Source: an uncultured Bacteroidota bacterium (GTDB lineage: Bacteria; Bacteroidota; Bacteroidia; Bacteroidales; DTGW01). Taken from it: a DNA stretch of 64,000 nt. Made by a program: the position numbers and the translations under genes. The first letter of the stretch is position 1; every line of letters starts with the position of its first letter. The stretch lies in NCBI GenBank assembly GCA_963851385.1, contig CAWKPE010000010.1:199269-263268 (forward strand). Direction: 5' to 3'. Under the pieces are notes generated by a model, which was not told the origin of the DNA, ran no database searches, and worked only from the letters and a program-made list of their open reading frames with translations. Below, piece after piece: positions 36,800-54,575 of this stretch.

Positions 36800-37384
36800 A
36801 TGAAAAAATTAGTTTTCTTATTAACGTTGGGTCTTTTGCAAGTTGCAGTAAATGCCCAAACCAAATGGACAGTGGACGCTGTTCATTCATCAATTAAATT
36901 TACAGTAACCCACCTTGTGATTTCCGAAGTTGAAGGAGATTTTAAAACCTTTACCGGAACAGTTGTAACAAACAATCCTGATTTTGCCGATGCGGCAATT
37001 GATTTCTCAGTCGATGTCAACAGTATAAATACAGATAATGAAATGCGTGACAAACATTTAAAATCAGCTGACTTTTTCAATGTTGAAAAATATCCACAGA
37101 TGACATTTAAAAGCAAATCATTTAAAAAACTGACTGATAACAAATATGAACTTAACGGTGATCTAACAATTCATGGCATTACAAAACCGGTAAAATTCGA
37201 TGTTACCAATGGTGGAACGGCTAAAGATGGATATGGAAATACTAAAGCAGGTTTCAAAGCAACTACAACAATAGACCGTTTTGATTACGATCTGAAATGG
37301 AACACTCTTACCGAAGCAAGTGGTGCAGTAGTAAGTAGAGATGTAAATATCTCGGTTAGGCTAGAACTGGCTAAAGCAAAATAA
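36800..37384 (+). CDS. YceI-family periplasmic protein
   Basis: 194 aa with a signal peptide, ...WTVDAVHSSIKFTVTHLVISEVEGDF..., ...LTIHGITKPV... Confidence 0.85.
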   Translation: MKKLVFLLTLGLLQVAVNAQTKWTVDAVHSSIKFTVTHLVISEVEGDFKTFTGTVVTNNPDFADAAIDFSVDVNSINTDNEMRDKHLKSADFFNVEKYPQMTFKSKSFKKLTDNKYELNGDLTIHGITKPVKFDVTNGGTAKDGYGNTKAGFKATTTIDRFDYDLKWNTLTEASGAVVSRDVNISVRLELAKAK

Positions 37385-37415
37385 TAAGCATTTGTTAAGA
37401 ATATTAAGTCATACA

Positions 37416-37450
37416 AAATCACTCTTTAAATTATGCAGAGTGATTTTTTT
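37416..37450 (+). terminator. rho-independent terminator
   Basis: aaatcactct / agagtgattt 10-bp stem followed by a T-run. Confidence 0.8.
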
Positions 37451-37565
37451 CCTTTAATAAACAATATTTTACATTGTGCCATAAATCAAACAATCTGTAT
37501 ATCATCTATATGTAAACAGTACATTTTTTTTATATCTTTATATATTATTTTTCTAAGCAAATAAC

Positions 37566-38138
37566 TTGAAACTATACATTAAAAATATGGTTTGCATCCG
37601 TTGCAAAATGGTTGTGAAAGCTGAATTAGAAAAACTCGGGTTGCATTATTCTGTAGTGGAGTTAGGTGAAGCAGAAATTAAAGAAAGTATAACTTCAGAA
37701 CAACGGAATACGTTAAACATTGATTTAAAAAAATCAGGGCTTGAACTGATGGACGATAAAAAAAGCATGTTAATTGAAAAAATAAAAAATATTATTATAG
37801 AATTGGTTCACTATTCCGATGAACAACCTAAAATAAATTTTTCTGATTATATAAGTGAAAAACTAAATCACGATTACACGTATCTTGCTAATCTTTTTTC
37901 TGAAGTTGAAGGGACAACCATTGAAAAATTCTTTATTGCTCATAAGATTGAACGTGTAAAAGAATTGCTTGTATACGATGAACTCAATCTTACTGAAATT
38001 GCATATAAACTACATTATAGCAGCGTGGCACATTTATCCAATCAATTTAAAAAAGTTACAGGCTTAACTCCCTCCCATTTCAAGCAACTCAGGCATAAAA
38101 GACGTATTATGTTAGAAGACTTGTCAGCCGGCAATTAA
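37566..38138 (+). CDS. AraC-family transcriptional regulator with small N-terminal CxxC domain
   Basis: 190 aa. The N-terminus is IKNMVCIRCKMVVKAELEKLG. The C-terminal HTH is ...LNLTEIAYKLHYSSVAHLSNQFKKVTGLTPSHFK. The track start is TTG; an ATG alternative is at 37587. Confidence 0.8.
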   Translation: MKLYIKNMVCIRCKMVVKAELEKLGLHYSVVELGEAEIKESITSEQRNTLNIDLKKSGLELMDDKKSMLIEKIKNIIIELVHYSDEQPKINFSDYISEKLNHDYTYLANLFSEVEGTTIEKFFIAHKIERVKELLVYDELNLTEIAYKLHYSSVAHLSNQFKKVTGLTPSHFKQLRHKRRIMLEDLSAGN

Positions 38139-38204
38139 TGTGTGAATCATGTAACTTATTTGCAGAGTTGTGTAACACTTTTTAGCAAAGATGTGCTCAC
38201 CTTT
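38138..38204 (+). promoter_or_regulatory. conserved cis-motif, copy 1 (ATGTGTGAAT ... 30-nt register ... TTGTGTAAC)
   Basis: Begins on the last base of the araC stop codon. It lies 54 nt upstream of the cupin ATG. It recurs at 52090, 53910 and (degenerate) 54054. Confidence 0.55.
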
Positions 38205-38229
38205 ATACCATCCTTACTTACACATAAAA

Positions 38230-38568
38230 ATGGATAACCAGGAAATTGAAAAATCGAAAGCACTCATAATTGTTGAAATAATAGAATATGTTTCTCATTC
38301 CGTTGTGAGCAAAACAATAATTAGAAAATCGACAGGTAATATCAGCGTAACTGCAATTGATTCAGGTGAAGGATTAACTGAAAAAACTTCGCCTTTTGAT
38401 ACCTTTGCTCAAATAATAGACGGAAAAGCCGAGATTGTAATTGATGGAAATTCAATTCAGCTTGAAACTGGCCAATCAATAATAATACCAGCTCACACAC
38501 CAAACATTATCAAAGCAAATGAGCGTTTTAAAATGATTTCAACAATCATAAAAAGCGGGTACGAATAA
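38230..38568 (+). CDS. small cupin-domain protein
   Basis: Start trimmed to MDNQEIEK (ATG at 38230). ...GKAEIVIDGNSIQLETGQSIIIPAHTPNIIKA... Confidence 0.65.
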   Translation: MDNQEIEKSKALIIVEIIEYVSHSVVSKTIIRKSTGNISVTAIDSGEGLTEKTSPFDTFAQIIDGKAEIVIDGNSIQLETGQSIIIPAHTPNIIKANERFKMISTIIKSGYE

Positions 38569-38742
38569 CCAATTGAATCAAGAACTAGAAGCCAAGATTC
38601 AAGCGCTGAGTAATGCCTTATTTACATCAAATTTTAATTCTAATAAATCACTTGCTCAAATAAACAAGAATCGAAAAAGAATTCACTCTCTTGGTTTTTG
38701 ATTCTTGATGCTTTAATATTTACCTATTCAGAAAATTAAAAC

Positions 38743-39786
38743 ATGATACAAGTTAAAAAAGAAGGCATCATATTAAAAAAGACAGATTTTAAATTTGAAA
38801 ATGAAGGCGTGCTAAATCCAGCTGCAATACGCCTGGGTGACAGTGTCCACCTTTTTTACCGTGCAGTGCAAAAAGGAAATTATTCAAGTATTGGATATTG
38901 CAGGCTGGATGGACCGTTAACAGTTGCTGAAAGATGGGATAAACCTATTATGGTTCCTGAATTCGATTATGAATCACATGGGGTTGAAGATGCCCGCATT
39001 GTAAAAATTGATAACTTGTATTATATGACTTACACTGCTTACGACGGGATAAATGCACAGGGAGCATTGGCTACTTCAAAAGATTTAAAGCATTTTAAAA
39101 AGCATGGAATCTTAGTACCACAGATTACATATGACGAATTTGCATTTCTGGCTAAATCGGCCGTTAAAATAAATGAGAAGTATTATCTTCATCACACTTT
39201 ATATTTCAAAGAGGAAAATCTTGATAAAAAATCATTATTATGGGATAAAAACTTGATTTTTTTTCCAAGAAGAATCAACAATAAATTAGCTTTTCTGCAC
39301 CGAATCAGGCCTGGCATTCAAATTGCATTCGTCAATAATATAAAAGAACTCACCAAAGAATATTGGAAAAACTATTGTCTGAACCTCCATGAACACATAG
39401 TAATGGATCCTCTATACGAACACGAATCGAAATATATTGGCAGTGGGTGCCCTCCAATTGAGACAAAACACGGATGGTTATTAATTTATCACGGAGCGGA
39501 AGAAACCAACAAAGGCGTTGTTTATTCTGCCTGCGCAGCTCTGCTGGATTTGAATGATCCATCAAAAGAAATAACCCGGCTGCCTCATACTTTGTTTTCA
39601 CCAGAATATGAGTGGGAGCAATTTGGAGAAGTTGATAATGTAGTTTTTCCTACCGGCACTTCATTATTTGGCAATACCTTATTCATATACTATGGTGCTG
39701 CTGATGAACATATTGCCTGTGCTTCTGTGAGTTTATCAGCATTATTGAAGAAACTATTATCTAACACTAGGAAAAATGAAAAATAA
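38743..39786 (+). CDS. GH130-family glycoside phosphorylase/hydrolase-like protein
   Basis: 347 aa, ...EGVLNPAAIR...HLFYRAV...GVEDARIVKIDNLYYMTYTAYDG... five-bladed propeller family signature. Confidence 0.75.
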   Translation: MIQVKKEGIILKKTDFKFENEGVLNPAAIRLGDSVHLFYRAVQKGNYSSIGYCRLDGPLTVAERWDKPIMVPEFDYESHGVEDARIVKIDNLYYMTYTAYDGINAQGALATSKDLKHFKKHGILVPQITYDEFAFLAKSAVKINEKYYLHHTLYFKEENLDKKSLLWDKNLIFFPRRINNKLAFLHRIRPGIQIAFVNNIKELTKEYWKNYCLNLHEHIVMDPLYEHESKYIGSGCPPIETKHGWLLIYHGAEETNKGVVYSACAALLDLNDPSKEITRLPHTLFSPEYEWEQFGEVDNVVFPTGTSLFGNTLFIYYGAADEHIACASVSLSALLKKLLSNTRKNEK

Positions 39787-44340: not shown

Positions 44341-45228
44341 ATGACTTTCTTAGACTATTATAAAATATTAGGGGTTGATAAAACTGCATCAACAAAGGAC
44401 ATCAAAAGTGCCTACCGGAAATTGGCCAGAAAGTATCACCCCGATTTAAATCCAAATGATAAGGATGCTAAAAAGAATTTTCAGCATATCAATGAAGCAA
44501 ATGAAGTATTAAGTGATCCCGAAAAACGTAAGAAATACGATCAATACGGAAAGGATTGGCAACATGCTGAAGAATTTGAAAAAGCAAGACAATATCAGGA
44601 ACAACCGCCAAATTCTCGTAGGACAAAATATTCAGAGGCTCAATCTGAAGGGGATTTTTCCGATTTTTTTGAATCCTTGTTTGGTGGTGCAGCAGGTGCC
44701 GGCAGAAGCAGACAAGTGAAATTCAGAGGAGAAGATTACAATGCGGAATTACATCTCGACCTCATCGATGCATATACAACTCACAAACAAATGTTAACAG
44801 TAAATGGGGAAAAAATAAGAATTACTATCCCTGCCGGAATTGAAAATGGGCAAACTATTAAAATAGCAGGCCATGGTGGCCAGGGAATAAATGGTGGGCC
44901 GAATGGTGATTTGTATATTACATTTTCAATAGCCAATCATTCAAAATTTAAACGTTTAGGAAATAATTTATATACTACAGCAGAGTTAGATTTATACACA
45001 GCGGTGTTGGGAGGAGAAATCATAATTGATACATTGAACGAAAAAGTGAAAATAAAAGTAAAGCCCGAAACGCAAAACGGTAGTAAAATAAAGATAAAAG
45101 GTAAGGGATTTCCTGTTTATAAAAATGAAGGACAATTTGGAGATTTATATGTAACTTATGCTATTAAAATCCCGACAAATTTAACGGATAAGCAAAAAGC
45201 ATTATTTACTGAATTGTCTAAATTATAA
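44341..45228 (+). CDS. cbpA: DnaJ-class co-chaperone of the CbpA type (J domain, no zinc finger)
   Basis: 295 aa, [33 protein letters not shown]. It is followed by a cbpM-like gene. Confidence 0.8.
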
Positions 45229-45245
45229 TTTTTAAAATGTAAGCA

Positions 45246-45542
45246 ATGCAAACAGAAAATTTAATTTCCATAAATGAATTCTGCATCAACCAAAATATAG
45301 AAATTTCATTTATCAATTCTTTACGACAAGCCGGATTGATAGAAATTACTACTATTAAAGAAGTAGAGTTTATTAATGCAGACCAGCTACAACAATTAGA
45401 AAAAATTGTTCGCTTATATTACGAGATGGATATTAACCTGGAAGGTATTGAAACCATTACTCATTTATTACAGCGAATAAATTCTCTGCAGGATGAAATT
45501 ATTGTACTCAGAAACAAGCTTCGTCTTTATGAAACGGATTAA
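45246..45542 (+). CDS. cbpM: chaperone modulator CbpM-like (MerR-type HTH)
   Basis: 98 aa, immediately downstream of cbpA. The C-terminal part is helical and leucine-rich. Confidence 0.6.
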   Translation: MQTENLISINEFCINQNIEISFINSLRQAGLIEITTIKEVEFINADQLQQLEKIVRLYYEMDINLEGIETITHLLQRINSLQDEIIVLRNKLRLYETD

Positions 45543-45605
45543 TAGTTTGACCGAAATTCAGATATAAAAATAGGATTAATATTCATAAACAAAATATGAA
45601 AAAAA

Positions 45606-46094
45606 ATGAAAACAAATAAGATGAAAAAAGTATTGATTGCGCTGGATTATGATCCAACTGCACAAAAAATAGCAGAAACAGGTTTTTCATTAGCTAAAAC
45701 AATGGGTGCTGAAATTATACTACTGCATGTAATTGCAGATGCTACATATTATTCTTCACTTGAATATAATCCGATAACAGGTTTTCTGGGTTTCAGCGCT
45801 ACAGACGCATCTCATTTATTAGAACCTGAAGGACTGAAAATAGCAACAAAACATTTTCTTGATAAAGTCAAACACCATCTTGAAGATGATAATATTAAAA
45901 CTATAGTAAAAGAAGGTGATTTTGCCGATTCTATATTAAAGTCTGCAAAAGATTTAAATGTGGATATTATTGTAATTGGTTCTCACAGCCGGAGATGGTT
46001 AACCGAAATACTAATAGGAAGTGTAACTGAAAAAGTTTTACATCACTCTTCCATACCTCTTTTCATAATTCCAGTTAAAGAACACAAATCATAA
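45606..46094 (+). CDS. universal stress protein (UspA family)
   Basis: 162 aa, ...KKVLIALDYD..., ...DIIVIGSHSRRWLTEILIGSVTEKVLHHSSIPLFIIP. Confidence 0.85.
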   Translation: MKTNKMKKVLIALDYDPTAQKIAETGFSLAKTMGAEIILLHVIADATYYSSLEYNPITGFLGFSATDASHLLEPEGLKIATKHFLDKVKHHLEDDNIKTIVKEGDFADSILKSAKDLNVDIIVIGSHSRRWLTEILIGSVTEKVLHHSSIPLFIIPVKEHKS

Positions 46095-46127
46095 AAACAA
46101 TATAATTCTCTTACAAACATAGTAGTA

Positions 46128-46742
46128 ATGGAAAATATCTGGAGCTATTCATTAACTGTTTTTATGGCATTTTTTGCCATTATGAACCCTGTTGCCAATA
46201 TTCCAATTTTTGTTCAGTTAACAGAAGGCCTCGATGAAAAGAAAAAAAAGGAAATTTCTAAAACAGCCAACATTGTTGCATTTCTAATTGTTTTAGCGTT
46301 TATTTTAGTTGGTAAATATATTTTCGAAATATTCGGGTTAACCGTTCCTGCATTCAAAGTATTTGGGGGAATTTTAATCTTTTTTATTGGATTTGAAATG
46401 CTTCAATCAAAAAAATCCAGCATACATCTTCAGGAAAAAGCAACTTTTGATGAAGGTGTAACCATATCCCCTTTAGCCATTCCTATTTTGGCCGGCCCAG
46501 GAACAATTGTTACAGCTATGAATTTTGTTGTAAAAGCAAATTATTTTTACGTACTCATAACCATATTAATATTTGCCCTAATCGTTTTTTTAACCCATTT
46601 GGCTTTTATTTACAGTAGTTTTATTGTAAAGTTAATTGGAAAAAGAAATTTTGTAATTATAGGTAAAATCATGGGACTGATTTTAGGTGTACTTGGAGCA
46701 AATATGGTAATTCAGGGAATCAAATTAGCATTTAATATTTGA
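46128..46742 (+). CDS. MarC-family integral membrane protein
   Basis: 204 aa, six predicted TM segments, ...FFAIMNPVANIPIF... Confidence 0.75.
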   Translation: MENIWSYSLTVFMAFFAIMNPVANIPIFVQLTEGLDEKKKKEISKTANIVAFLIVLAFILVGKYIFEIFGLTVPAFKVFGGILIFFIGFEMLQSKKSSIHLQEKATFDEGVTISPLAIPILAGPGTIVTAMNFVVKANYFYVLITILIFALIVFLTHLAFIYSSFIVKLIGKRNFVIIGKIMGLILGVLGANMVIQGIKLAFNI

Positions 46743-51953: not shown

Positions 51954-51980
51954 GAGTCCCGTATTCTCGGGACTTTTTTG
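51954..51980 (+). terminator. rho-independent terminator
   Basis: agtcccg / cgggact stem followed by TTTTTT. Confidence 0.8.
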
Positions 51981-52089: not shown

Positions 52090-52128
52090 AATGTGTGAAT
52101 TATGTAAATATGTCAAAGAATTGTGTAA
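52090..52128 (+). promoter_or_regulatory. conserved cis-motif, copy 3
   Basis: ATGTGTGAATTATGTAA ... TTGTGTAAC with the same 30-nt register. It lies ~100 nt upstream of the radical-SAM ATG. Confidence 0.5.
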
Positions 52129-52227
52129 CTAATTTGATACATAATTGAAATAAATTTACTCTCTTGTATCCATTACATATCATTACTACAAATTATCAAG
52201 TCTGAAATAAATAATAAATAATTGCAA

Positions 52228-53874
52228 ATGAAGGATTTTTTTAGAGGATTTACCAAATGTTTAATTGTTCAAACAAAATTTTCAGACTATAGTTTCTGGA
52301 ATTATCAGGATGTATGTAAAATTGTTGGAGCCAAATATCCTGCAGCACCTCTTGGTTTGTTGACTCTGGCTGCACTTTTACCTCAACATTGGACATTTAA
52401 ACTGGTTGACGAAAACGTTGAGCCTTTATTAGATGAACATCTGAAATGGGCTGATATTGTTTGCACTGGAGGTATGTTGCCTCAGCAAAAGAGTATGCTT
52501 GAGTTTATTAAAAGAGCTCATAACTTAAATTGTACTGTAGTTGTTGGAGGTCCCGATCCGACATCACAACCGGATACTTATAAAGAAGCTGATTTTTTAG
52601 TTCTTGGTGAAGGCGAAGTAACCGTTCCTATATTTCTCCAGGCAATTGACAACATGGTGCTAAAAGTGGAATTTTTGCTTCTGAGGAAAAAGCCGATATG
52701 TCAAAAGCGGTTGTTCCCAGATATGACCTTATTCGTTTTCGTGATTATATTATGATTGGCGTGCAGTTTATACGAGGATGCCCTTACAATTGCGAATTCT
52801 GTGATATCATAGAACTATTCGGACGCATACCCAGATTTAAAACTACAGAACAAGTTATTAAAGAGTTGCAAAACCTTTATGATCTTGGTCACAGAGGACA
52901 TATTGATTTTGTTGACGATAATTTTATTGGCAATAAAAAGAAGGCAAAAGAATTGCTTCGTGAAATCAGGAAATGGACTATTGAACATAAATATCCATTC
53001 TATTTTTCTACTGAAGCATCTATAAATCTTGCCGAGGACGATGAACTGCTGCAGCTCATGAAAGATGTTGATTTCCGGTATGTATTTCTTGGTATTGAAA
53101 CTCCGGAGAATGAAACGTTGGCAATTAATCAGAAAAACCAAAATGTAAATAAATCTGTTGAAGATGCTGTACGAAAAATAATGTCATATGGAATTATATG
53201 TAATGGCGGTTATATTATTGGATTCGACAGTGAAAGTCCAAGGATAGCCGAAAATATGATATCATTCCATACAAAATTCAGGCATATGCATGGCTATGTT
53301 GGGACTATTATATGCATTACCGAATACACAACTTACCCGCCGGCTTGAATCTGAAGAACAGATTGTTTCAAAACGCGTCAAAAACAATCAGTGAATTCGA
53401 TATAGATCAATCGACGAGTGGACTTAATTTTATAACTAAAAAACCCCGCACTGAAATAATAAATAATTATTTACGGGTAATTAGGTATATTTATGAACCC
53501 TAAAAATTATTATAAAAGGATTATTTATAATGGCCTTAATCTCAAAACCGATTATAAATATAAACCTGGCTTTGGAATAATGGCTTATTTATTTGCGCTC
53601 ATTTCTGAAGGTATGCTTGCAGGTTGGATTTAATAAACATACTGGATACCTATATTGGAAAATGTTTTTTACCGTTTTATTCCGAAATGCAAAATCAATG
53701 GAAGCCGCTATAAATCTGGCTGCAATGTTTATTCATTTTCAAAAACAAAAAGAGTTATGTTGTTAGATGCAATGAATAGAATGATTAAAGCATGTTGAAG
53801 AAATAGGTGAAGCTGAATTTTATAGAATTATGGTTTACGAAGTTTCTGAACCTGTTGAAGCAGATTTAGAATAA
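52228..53874 (+). pseudogene. B12-binding-domain radical SAM protein (with DUF4070-like C-terminus), at least six frame breaks
   Basis: Pieces read in alternating frames. They are the B12-binding part (…VVVGGPDPTSQP…), the core IRGCPYNCEFCDI, then IQNSGICMAMLGLLYALPNTQLTRRLESE / RLFQNASKTISEFD.. / KNYYKRIIYNG.. / GYLYWKMFFTVLFRN.. / ..EAEFYRIMVYEV. Confidence 0.75.
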
Positions 53875-53909: not shown

Positions 53910-53977
53910 ATGTGTGAATGATGTAACTTAATTCCAGAGTTGTGTGACACTTTTTATCATAAAGATGTTCACTTTTG
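53910..53977 (+). promoter_or_regulatory. conserved cis-motif, copy 2 (closest to copy 1 over ~68 nt)
   Basis: ATGTGTGAATGATGTAACTTAATTCCAGAGTTGTGTGACACTTTTTATCATAAAGATGTTCAC. Same 30-nt register. Confidence 0.55.
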
Positions 53978-54053
53978 CACATAAGTTTACTCTTAATTGA
54001 TAAATCAGAAATACCAAGCATAAAGTTCAATTGAACTTAGAAACCTTGGGGTG

Positions 54054-54093
54054 TCGTGTCATTCGATGTAAATCATTTCATAAGTTGTGTAAC
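54054..54093 (+). promoter_or_regulatory. conserved cis-motif, degenerate copy 4
   Basis: cgtgtcattcgatgtaaatcatttcataaGTTGTGTAAC. The first box is degenerate with 31-nt spacing. It lies 68 nt upstream of the ATG at 54161. Confidence 0.4.
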
Positions 54094-54160
54094 ATTTACC
54101 TCTATAAAACAAGGTACTTAATAGACAAAGATTTGTTGTTTTTATTAAATATTTTAAAAC

Positions 54161-54319
54161 ATGAAAAACGCTCTTTACGTTATTGCCGGTTTACTAATAG
54201 TAATTTGGTTAATTGCTGTCATTGGCTTTAAACCTTTCGGAATTATTCATATGTTGCCTGTTTTGGCTGTTATTATCATACTATTCAGAATCTTTTTTAA
54301 CAAGCAGCTATCAAAATAG
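54161..54319 (+). CDS. lmo0937-family small membrane protein
   Basis: Not in the ORF track. Hand translation gives MKNALYVIAGLLIVIWLIAVIGFKPFGIIHMLPVLAVIIILFRIFFNKQLSK (52 aa, two TM helices). Confidence 0.7.
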   Translation: MKNALYVIAGLLIVIWLIAVIGFKPFGIIHMLPVLAVIIILFRIFFNKQLSK

Positions 54320-54389: not shown

Positions 54390-54575
54390 ATGAGTACAGT
54401 ATTAGATAAGATTAATTGGCATAATATTAAAAACCACTTAAAACAGAAATACCCGGTATTAACAAATTCCGATTTGCTTTTTAGAAAAGGCATGGAAGAT
54501 GATTTATTAACAATGATTGCATATAAACTGGGGAAAACTACCAAAGAGATGCATGAAATAATTACAAAGCTTTAG
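54390..54575 (+). CDS. CsbD-like general stress protein
   Basis: 61 aa, ...WHNIKNHLKQKYPVLTNSDLLFRKGMEDDLLTMIAYKLGKTTKEMHEII. Confidence 0.65.
   Translation: MSTVLDKINWHNIKNHLKQKYPVLTNSDLLFRKGMEDDLLTMIAYKLGKTTKEMHEIITKL

Follow-up and report, generated by a model that had tools for sequence, protein, structure and literature searches.

A tandem-repeat promoter module conserved across Bacteroidota and its putative AraC-family regulator

Four copies of one motif beside an AraC-family gene

The window is a stretch of 64,000 nucleotides from an uncultured Bacteroidota bacterium of the order Bacteroidales (lineage DTGW01; assembly GCA_963851385.1, contig CAWKPE010000010.1, positions 199,269 to 263,268 of the forward strand). 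It contains the gene of a small AraC-family regulator and four copies of a motif located next to this gene and upstream of three groups of genes. These copies are a promoter module that is conserved across Bacteroidota. Judged from sequence comparison, the module probably serves a conserved stress regulon as an activator site of the class-II AraC type, bound by the adjacent regulator of 183 amino acids (aa). The features are listed below in window coordinates; bits are scores of the weight matrix and the logo is the alignment of 187 sites, both described further on.

37587..38138, plus strand: AraC-family regulator gene, 183 aa, Pfam HTH_18, TAA stop at 38136-38138
38138..38176, plus strand: operator copy 1, 0 mismatches, 73 bits, the best of the genome
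38144-38155: distal repeat of copy 1, GAATCATGTAAC, with TGTGT before it
38166-38176: proximal repeat of copy 1, AGTTGTGTAAC
38198..38205, plus strand: -7 box of promoter 1, CACCTTTA, at the fixed distance given by the logo
38230..38568, plus strand: cupin gene, 112 aa, Pfam Cupin_2, first target
52091..52129, plus strand: operator copy 2, 0 mismatches, 43 bits
52151..52158, plus strand: -7 box of promoter 2, TAAATTTA, position from the logo
52228..53874, plus strand: B12-binding radical-SAM gene, Pfam B12-binding and Radical_SAM on separate pieces, second target
53910..53948, plus strand: operator copy 3, 0 mismatches, 67 bits, 36 nt past the end of the radical-SAM gene
53970..53977, plus strand: -7 box of promoter 3, CACTTTTG, position from the logo, predicted start at about 53982
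54054..54093, plus strand: degenerate operator copy 4, boxes B and C intact, box A 6/9
54115-54122: poor -7 box at the canonical distance from copy 4, TACTTAAT
54161..54319, plus strand: gene of a small membrane protein of the lmo0937 family (DUF5670), 52 aa, by NCBIfam and Pfam, third target
54390..54575, plus strand: CsbD-like gene, 61 aa, member of the largest cluster of proteins encoded downstream of the motif (19 members)

The motif, ATGTGTGAAT-n-ATGTAA-N13-TTGTGTRAC, is found on the plus strand at 38138, 52091 and 53910, and its three elements are called boxes A, B and C. Written as ATGTGTGAATNATGTAA-N13-TTGTGTRAC, it is present with 0 mismatches at these three positions against 0 expected from 100 dinucleotide-preserving shuffles. 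Copy 4 has kept ATGTAA-N13-TTGTGTAAC, contains one additional base between boxes A and B and has a degenerate box A that reads CGTGTCATT. Most of this had been seen in the first-pass annotation, including the degenerate copy at 54054 with its extra base. Its positions 38138 and 53910 are right while its 52090 is off by one, and pattern matching agrees that every copy is on the plus strand. In the same way, the spacing between box C and the following ATG was recomputed (54, 99, 213 and 68 nt for copies 1 to 4, counted from the end of the box) and agrees with the first-pass values, and copy 1 does begin on the stop codon of the regulator gene, the overlap being the last base of the TAA.

The assembly comprises 4.18 Mb in 35 contigs with 33% G+C and is 91% complete. 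The core ATGTAA-N(11-15)-TTGTGTRAC occurs exactly four times in it, each time inside the window, and a search for further or weaker genomic copies with flexible spacers and a weight matrix found none beyond those of the window. This matrix has 70 columns and was built from other genomes only; it gives the scores listed above for the three perfect copies and nothing at or above 8 bits on both strands of the rest of the genome (8.4 Mb). With its additional nucleotide removed, copy 4 scores 24 bits, its operator part alone reaching 29 bits and its -7 part -8.9 bits. Since three perfect copies and a degenerate one stand against none expected and nothing else in the genome reaches 8 bits, the four copies are real and not the product of chance.

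Copies 1 and 3 are identical at 57 of 70 positions, and copy 2 departs from both immediately past box C. The pair that remains alignable over about 68 nt is thus formed by 38138 and 53910, and not by copies 1 and 2 as had been proposed. The spacers of copies 1 and 3 (38177-38197 and 53949-53969) have 14 of 20 bases in common (ACACTTTTTA.CA.AAAGATGT..CAC), which are unconserved in other genomes. This identity suggests a recent duplication or gene conversion between both promoters, or an extra local element.

Architecture of the module and its link to the regulator

To describe the module beyond its source genome, 80 loci (1.32 Mb) around regulator orthologues of 68-80% identity were collected from metagenome-assembled genomes and isolates. 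They are labelled Bacteroidales, Chitinophagaceae, Flavobacterium, Aquimarina, Pontibacter, Lacihabitans, Prolixibacteraceae and others, and cover the orders Bacteroidales, Chitinophagales, Flavobacteriales, Cytophagales and Sphingobacteriales. With up to 4 mismatches of 25 allowed, 188 motif matches were found in 73 of the 80 loci, and the weight matrix gave 263 matches in 78 of them.

The module spans about 70 bp and consists of an operator of about 40 bp upstream and a -7 box. The operator is made of two direct repeats AATnRTGTAAC that are exactly 21 bp apart, the distal one bearing an additional TGTG. In the logo, columns 6-16 (AATnATGTAAC), moved on by 21, coincide with columns 27-37 (A[A/G]TT[G/A]TGTAAC) in 10-11 of 11 positions. 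These two-turn repeats replace the pair of TGTGT boxes about three helical turns apart that had been put forward in the first reading of the sequence. Moreover, columns lying outside the search pattern are conserved too, namely A at -1 (95%), T20, A27 and T29/T30.

The -7 box, nAcCTTTG, occupies columns 59-66, that is 21 nt past box C, with A60 at 90%, T63 at 98% and T64 at 99%. It fits the -7 consensus of Bacteroidota housekeeping promoters (sigma-A/ABfr), which was described as TAnnTTTG (PMC9723704, PMC7366714) and spans -12 to -5 (PMC9723704). Because the box takes this interval in the published maps, the transcription start is predicted at column 71. The predicted geometry brings the TGTAAC of box C (columns 32-37) to -39 to -34 and the whole operator to about -72 to -34. 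The -33 element TTTG is not present in the logo: columns 34-41 read TAACAcTT and box C stands in its place. A scan for sigma-70-type promoters did no better than on shuffled sequences and was set aside as not applicable to Bacteroidota.

The position of the module relative to genes is also that of a promoter. A same-strand open reading frame (ORF) lies downstream of 176 of the 188 sites, at a median of 35 nt between predicted start and start codon. Site centres fall in open frames of at least 120 codons in 15% of cases versus 83% for random positions of the same loci, and many of the in-frame sites are the regulator's own last codons. At many loci the regulator stop TGA is the TGA of box A, as compared with the window, where the last base of the TAA is also the motif's first. 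A location mostly inside genes or within a dispersed repeat, which the first-pass annotation had named as the outcome that would speak against its proposal, is therefore not what is seen.

The regulator itself is a bona fide member of the AraC/XylS family with a double helix-turn-helix DNA-binding domain. Its gene is single-copy in the source genome. The C-terminal part matches Pfam HTH_18 over residues 90-167 (E 5.5e-16, 59.1 bits versus a cut-off of 33.6). The AF2 (AlphaFold2) model built with 56 orthologues has seven helices and a pLDDT (predicted local distance difference test) of 88.7. In Foldseek searches, residues ~57-181 superpose on the DNA-binding domains of AraT, YesN, AdpA, SoxS, MarA and Rob with template modelling (TM) scores, normalised to the target, of 0.74-0.83. 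All 22 NCBIfam matches are far under their cut-offs, the best being AryK with 46 versus 850 bits; as no equivalog comes near its cut-off, the protein belongs to an unnamed AraC/XylS subfamily.

The N-terminal ~55 aa form a separate small domain that opens with MVCIRCK and contains a helix (4-16), two strands (21-25 and 28-31) and a second helix (37-49). Its pLDDT is 74 when folded alone and 85-92 in the full model. The best Protein Data Bank matches of residues 1-60 are heavy-metal-associated (HMA) domains, namely the metal-binding domain of CopA (3fry, TM 0.69, E 0.015), TTHA1718 (2roe) and Atx1 (2xmt); Foldseek E-values of these structural matches range from 0.015 to 1.4, none being at or below 0.001, and strand 1 is absent. 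No Pfam HMA match was obtained on the N-terminal 78 aa up to E 10, where a spurious rotavirus match was the only one. The CxxC highlighted in the first reading does exist in the window protein as C3 and C6, but it is not a family trait: among 55 orthologues C6 never changes, whereas position 3 holds Cys in about half of them and Ser or Thr in the others. Family-wide sensing of metal or redox state by the CxxC was therefore rejected, since a two-cysteine switch cannot be the general mechanism when the first cysteine is found in only about half of the orthologues. The MVCIRC form, encoded at 37587-37604 in the window, alternates with MVS[I/N/L/A]RC (orthologues in loci L027-L105), and some genomes carry both forms as neighbouring paralogues. 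The small domain and the GLELMDDKK linker, which is invariant, could have a part in dimerisation or partner binding.

Motif and regulator occur together. Among 61 genomes related at the level of the order, the strict core recurs in 10, with about 25 matches outside the source genome versus 5 for the reversed control, and every strict-core genome holds a regulator orthologue of at least 67% identity, except for one atypical single match. At the level of the phylum, an even sample of 401 Bacteroidota genomes was searched with a strict pattern (up to 3 mismatches of 25) and with the reversed pattern as control. The strict motif was found in 20 of the 401 genomes, from 18 genera, and the reversed control in none. 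The regulator family is present in all 20 strict-motif genomes versus 195 of 401 overall (Fisher p ~3e-7, uncorrected for shared ancestry). A looser pattern gave 229 matches versus 51 for the control, and of the 37 genomes with at least two matches 33 have the regulator. Of the other 19 strict-motif genomes, 11 have a site no more than 20 kb from the regulator gene, and several of these sites directly precede or follow it. The co-occurrence of the motif with orthologues of the AraC gene, which the first-pass annotation had offered as a check, is thus borne out, sites often being within a few hundred bases of the gene. Furthermore, 15 genomes possess a close orthologue and no pattern match, and in 10 of them the weight matrix reveals variant modules beside the regulator.

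The two partners may also vary together, as sequence comparison suggests. Box A TGTGAAT pairs with regulators whose helix 3 reads ANLFSE (158 sites), and TGTGATAT pairs with ANTFSE (5 of 5 sites), while helix 6 (YSSVAHLSNQFKK), which is the second recognition helix, is almost constant, as are boxes B and C with their TGTAAC. The variant belongs to one family of another class (loci L109, L112 and L114 in genomes G108, G397 and G449), in which the operator reads CATGTGATATATGTAAC...TTTGTAAC and a Leu-to-Thr change is found in the first recognition helix of the regulator.

Modules can be grouped in other genomes. In three of them 5-7 of them lie within 15-20 kb (G131 C1:284-304 kb; G364 C24:169-184 kb; G205 C14:1-15 kb), and these clusters are stress islands comparable to the 16-kb spread of the window. 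A 68%-identical regulator with six modules was also present in a contig labelled Candidatus Saccharibacteria (L088, CAVXOV010000044.1), which is probably a Bacteroidota contig in the wrong bin.

Target genes in the window and in other genomes

In the source genome the circuit is a small one, with three good promoters and a single degenerate site, none of them more than 16 kb away from the regulator. Promoter 1 has its predicted transcription start at about 38210, 20 nt ahead of the ATG of the cupin gene. This gene is followed by GH130, GT4 and GH130 genes, and no terminator was predicted between them and the cupin gene when 37300-38800 was scanned.

Promoter 2 is placed after the terminator of a cold-shock gene (51954-51975) and has its predicted start at about 52163, 65 nt ahead of the ATG at 52228. 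In a genome of the same genus, an operator identical to copy 2 precedes orthologous radical-SAM genes. The gene at 52228-53874 is split over at least six frames in this assembly. The same-genus genome (G001, contig C45; loci L003 and L013) has two radical-SAM copies, each after a cold-shock gene and the same operator, and the tblastn pieces of the copy in L013 also shift frame (2121-2243 versus 2243-2680). Since the same-genus pieces are broken too, the frame breaks are either a shared sequencing-error pattern or a genuine feature of the gene.

No ORF was found between promoter 3 and copy 4 (53983-54053). Either promoter 3 would therefore provide the lmo0937-family gene with a leader of about 179 nt, copy 4 being an auxiliary site, or a gene that it once drove has been lost. 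Tandem same-strand modules within 250 nt are rare elsewhere, with 4 pairs among 263 sites. The 54161 gene scores 30.9 bits with NCBIfam NF033488 (cut-off 30) and matches Pfam DUF5670; the CsbD-like protein encoded at 54390 has only a weak match to PRK10428/YjbJ, and its gene is probably co-transcribed with the lmo0937-family gene. Between the motif-bearing promoters, the classical stress genes for a DnaJ/CbpA-like protein with its MerR_2 partner, Usp and MarC (44341-46742) have no module and are presumably under other control; other genes of this interval are without the motif as well.

The genes that follow the module in other genomes were tallied as listed here. The tally is weighted to the neighbourhood of the regulator, except for the sites away from it.

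CsbD-like: 19 by clustering (the largest cluster), 9 by Pfam
The regulator itself: 16-18 cases of 150-176
Same cupin family as in the window: 18 of 176 by clustering, 9 by Pfam, including contigs without the regulator
DUF5670/lmo0937: 9-10 cases
61-aa membrane protein: 9 cases
OmpA: 6 cases
Ice-binding-like: 5 cases
B12-radical-SAM (Radical_SAM with DUF4070): 2 cases
YtxH, glycine-zipper, kinase/receiver and DJ-1: fewer cases

Each of the target types recognised in the first reading (cupin, radical-SAM, lmo0937/CsbD-like) recurs behind the module in other genomes. At 18 good-scoring sites away from the regulator, BON, rubrerythrin, SHOCT, fasciclin, ice-binding and YtxH genes are found downstream, together with cupin, Gsp26-like PNPOx, DUF748, SOUL and OmpA genes. 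This content resembles that of the general stress regulons of other phyla. Two low-scoring pattern matches ahead of an ABC ATPase gene look like false positives.

Mode of action, alternatives and significance

Taken as an activator site, each copy would be the operator half of a housekeeping-sigma promoter. Two regulator subunits would line up along the same face of the helix, one per 17-bp repeat, each inserting its two helix-turn-helix units into adjacent major grooves. The proximal subunit would contact RNA polymerase at the -35 position and thereby recruit it, which corresponds to class-II-type activation, and the activated promoter would thus be one with a -7 box and no -33 box. The regulon of the source genome would include the cupin gene (perhaps with the GH130, GT4 and GH130 genes), the B12-radical-SAM gene and the lmo0937-family/CsbD-like pair. 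Elsewhere in Bacteroidota the module is found ahead of at least a dozen genes of the general-stress type, and often of the regulator gene as well, and the small HMA-like N-terminal domain is a candidate sensor or dimerisation module.

Several observations weigh against this activator model. Transcription starts are predicted from the -7 box alone, and we infer from sequence both the binding and activation by this regulator and the signal it would respond to. The regulator gene is a frequent target, so that its co-occurrence with the motif also fits mere membership in the regulon; in the source genome no module is present ahead of the regulator's own gene. The motif patterns match only a minority of the 195 regulator-family genomes among the 401, and 5 of the 15 genomes with a close orthologue and no pattern match have no module within 10 kb of the regulator. 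The co-variation of helix 3 and box A comes from a single lineage, and copy 4 is devoid of a good -7 box at the canonical distance. Finally, the missing -33 element is weak evidence for activator dependence, because some Bacteroidota promoters show no detectable element of this kind (PMC7366714).

The alternative that best survives, though we hold it improbable, is that the module is a real promoter-operator bound by another factor, either a different transcription factor or a response regulator from the kinase/receiver genes found alongside the regulator in some genomes, the AraC gene being a mere member of the regulon. It would account for the module preceding the regulator gene itself in 16-18 of 150-176 cases, for the histidine-kinase and receiver genes among the targets and for the many regulator-family genomes in which the patterns used find no motif. 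However, the strict motif was never seen without the regulator family in the 401 genomes, the regulator is the sole DNA-binding protein that is consistently adjacent, and no kinase/receiver pair is located near the sites in the window. In addition, direct repeats of about 17 bp at 21-bp spacing suit the footprint of a double helix-turn-helix AraC protein, and helix 3 and box A change together.

Slightly less probable still is a mode of action in which the AraC protein does bind but represses, or plays a dual role, by blocking the -35 region until a signal arrives. Some AraC-family proteins act as repressors, and the proximal repeat overlaps the region that sigma contacts around -33, an element that is not always needed in this phylum (PMC7366714). 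Yet the spacing between operator and -7 box is rigid (T63/T64 at 98-99%), as expected of a contact with polymerase on one face of the helix, and a repressor site would tolerate variation. The module in front of the regulator's own gene would moreover amount to positive autoregulation, which is typical of stress activators.

That the motif belongs to a transcribed leader RNA such as a riboswitch or thermosensor, an alternative already raised by the first-pass annotation, or to an extracytoplasmic function (ECF) sigma promoter with TGTAAC as its -35 element, is very unlikely. All copies are on the strand of the downstream gene, and GTAAC is similar to ECF -35 elements. Nevertheless, the whole window contains no Rfam match at or above the gathering score, the consensus structure that RNAalifold returned for 60 sites, run next to column-shuffled controls, is empty on either strand (0.0 kcal/mol), and single-sequence folding of the window copies is no better than that of shuffles (z -0.5 to +0.3). 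The leader RNA was rejected on these grounds and on the position of the motif upstream of a -7 box at fixed distance. As for the ECF promoter, a CGT-type -10 element 16-17 nt past TGTAAC was not found, the columns at this distance holding under 0.15 bits and columns 52-58 at most 0.16 bits each, and the box downstream of the motif is of the housekeeping type. The least credible alternative, that a small mobile or dispersed repeat left these copies behind and that they regulate nothing, could draw on the 57 of 70 bases common to copies 1 and 3, including the spacer unconserved elsewhere, as a sign of recent copying, but there are four copies only, with no terminal inverted repeats and unconserved flanks, their orientation and distance to downstream genes are fixed, and what is conserved across orders is the motif and not a repeat.

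The activator model has well-known relatives. AraC at araI1-araI2 of the araBAD promoter of E. coli, XylS at Pm and RhaS/RhaR at rhaBAD/rhaSR are activators that bind tandem direct repeats. As here, these are half-sites of about 17 bp placed 21 bp centre to centre, with the proximal one next to the -35 region, and the double helix-turn-helix AraC domain comes after a separate N-terminal domain. The system of the window differs in its Bacteroidota promoter (-7 TAnnTTTG, no -10/-35) and in the unrelated sequence of the half-site. Its N-terminal part is an HMA-like alpha/beta module of about 55 aa instead of a cupin or sugar-binding domain, its targets are stress genes and not a catabolic operon, and the operator often overlaps the stop codon of the regulator. 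In the same way, it is like MarA, SoxS and Rob of E. coli in its AraC-family domain (TM 0.74-0.76 to SoxS and MarA), in its dispersed stress genes and in sites at or overlapping -35. However, MarA and SoxS are monomers that are controlled by their abundance and bind a single asymmetric 20-bp box, whereas two repeats and an extra N-terminal domain are found here.

With regard to gene content, the sigma-B regulons of Bacillus and Listeria, the RpoS regulon of Enterobacteria and the EcfG regulon of Alphaproteobacteria likewise contain CsbD, YtxH and lmo0937-family genes; Gsp26-like PNPOx, BON/OsmY-like, OmpA-like and rubrerythrin genes are also common to both. Unlike these sigma-run regulons, the module is a transcription factor operator ahead of a housekeeping-type -7 box and not an alternative-sigma promoter. 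As to the N-terminal domain, HMA domains such as CopZ/Atx1 and those of CopA are its nearest, though weak, structural matches (residues 1-60), and in this protein M-x-C-x-x-C opens the first helix. It is unlike them in that Pfam HMA is not matched, about half of the orthologues have Ser in place of the first Cys and strand 1 is missing, as the protein starts at the motif.

A full-text literature search returned no description of this regulator or motif and, as far as it showed, none of a general-stress master regulator in Bacteroidota, in line with the first-pass annotation, which was not aware of a regulon described for this regulator class in the phylum. None of the six sigma-type motifs reported from the promoters of F. 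psychrophilum is this module (PMC9723704), and the promoter map of B. thetaiotaomicron does not list it (PMC7366714). A non-coding RNA paper from the Breaker laboratory that mentions csbD deals with an unrelated motif. Activators of the AraC type that bind tandem direct repeats are a well-known kind of system, while this particular one appears to be undescribed, as do its HMA-like domain and its stress regulon.

For the organism, the module joins three otherwise unrelated loci of the window into one predicted regulon. For the phylum, an operator of 40 bp and a regulator of 68-80% identity across orders make a testable candidate for a general-stress regulator of Bacteroidota. A more tentative proposal, which we regard as possible though less likely than not, is that the pair is the general-stress master switch of environmental Bacteroidota including sister classes, in which an HMA-like/AraC factor would act on housekeeping-sigma promoters with no alternative sigma factor. 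The weight matrix can serve as an annotation tool for regulon members with essentially no false positives (8.4 Mb, both strands), and the module might be of use as an inducible promoter part in a phylum that has few genetic tools. The regulon could define which CsbD, YtxH, BON, lmo0937, cupin, OmpA and ice-binding genes are co-induced in soil, freshwater and marine Bacteroidota.

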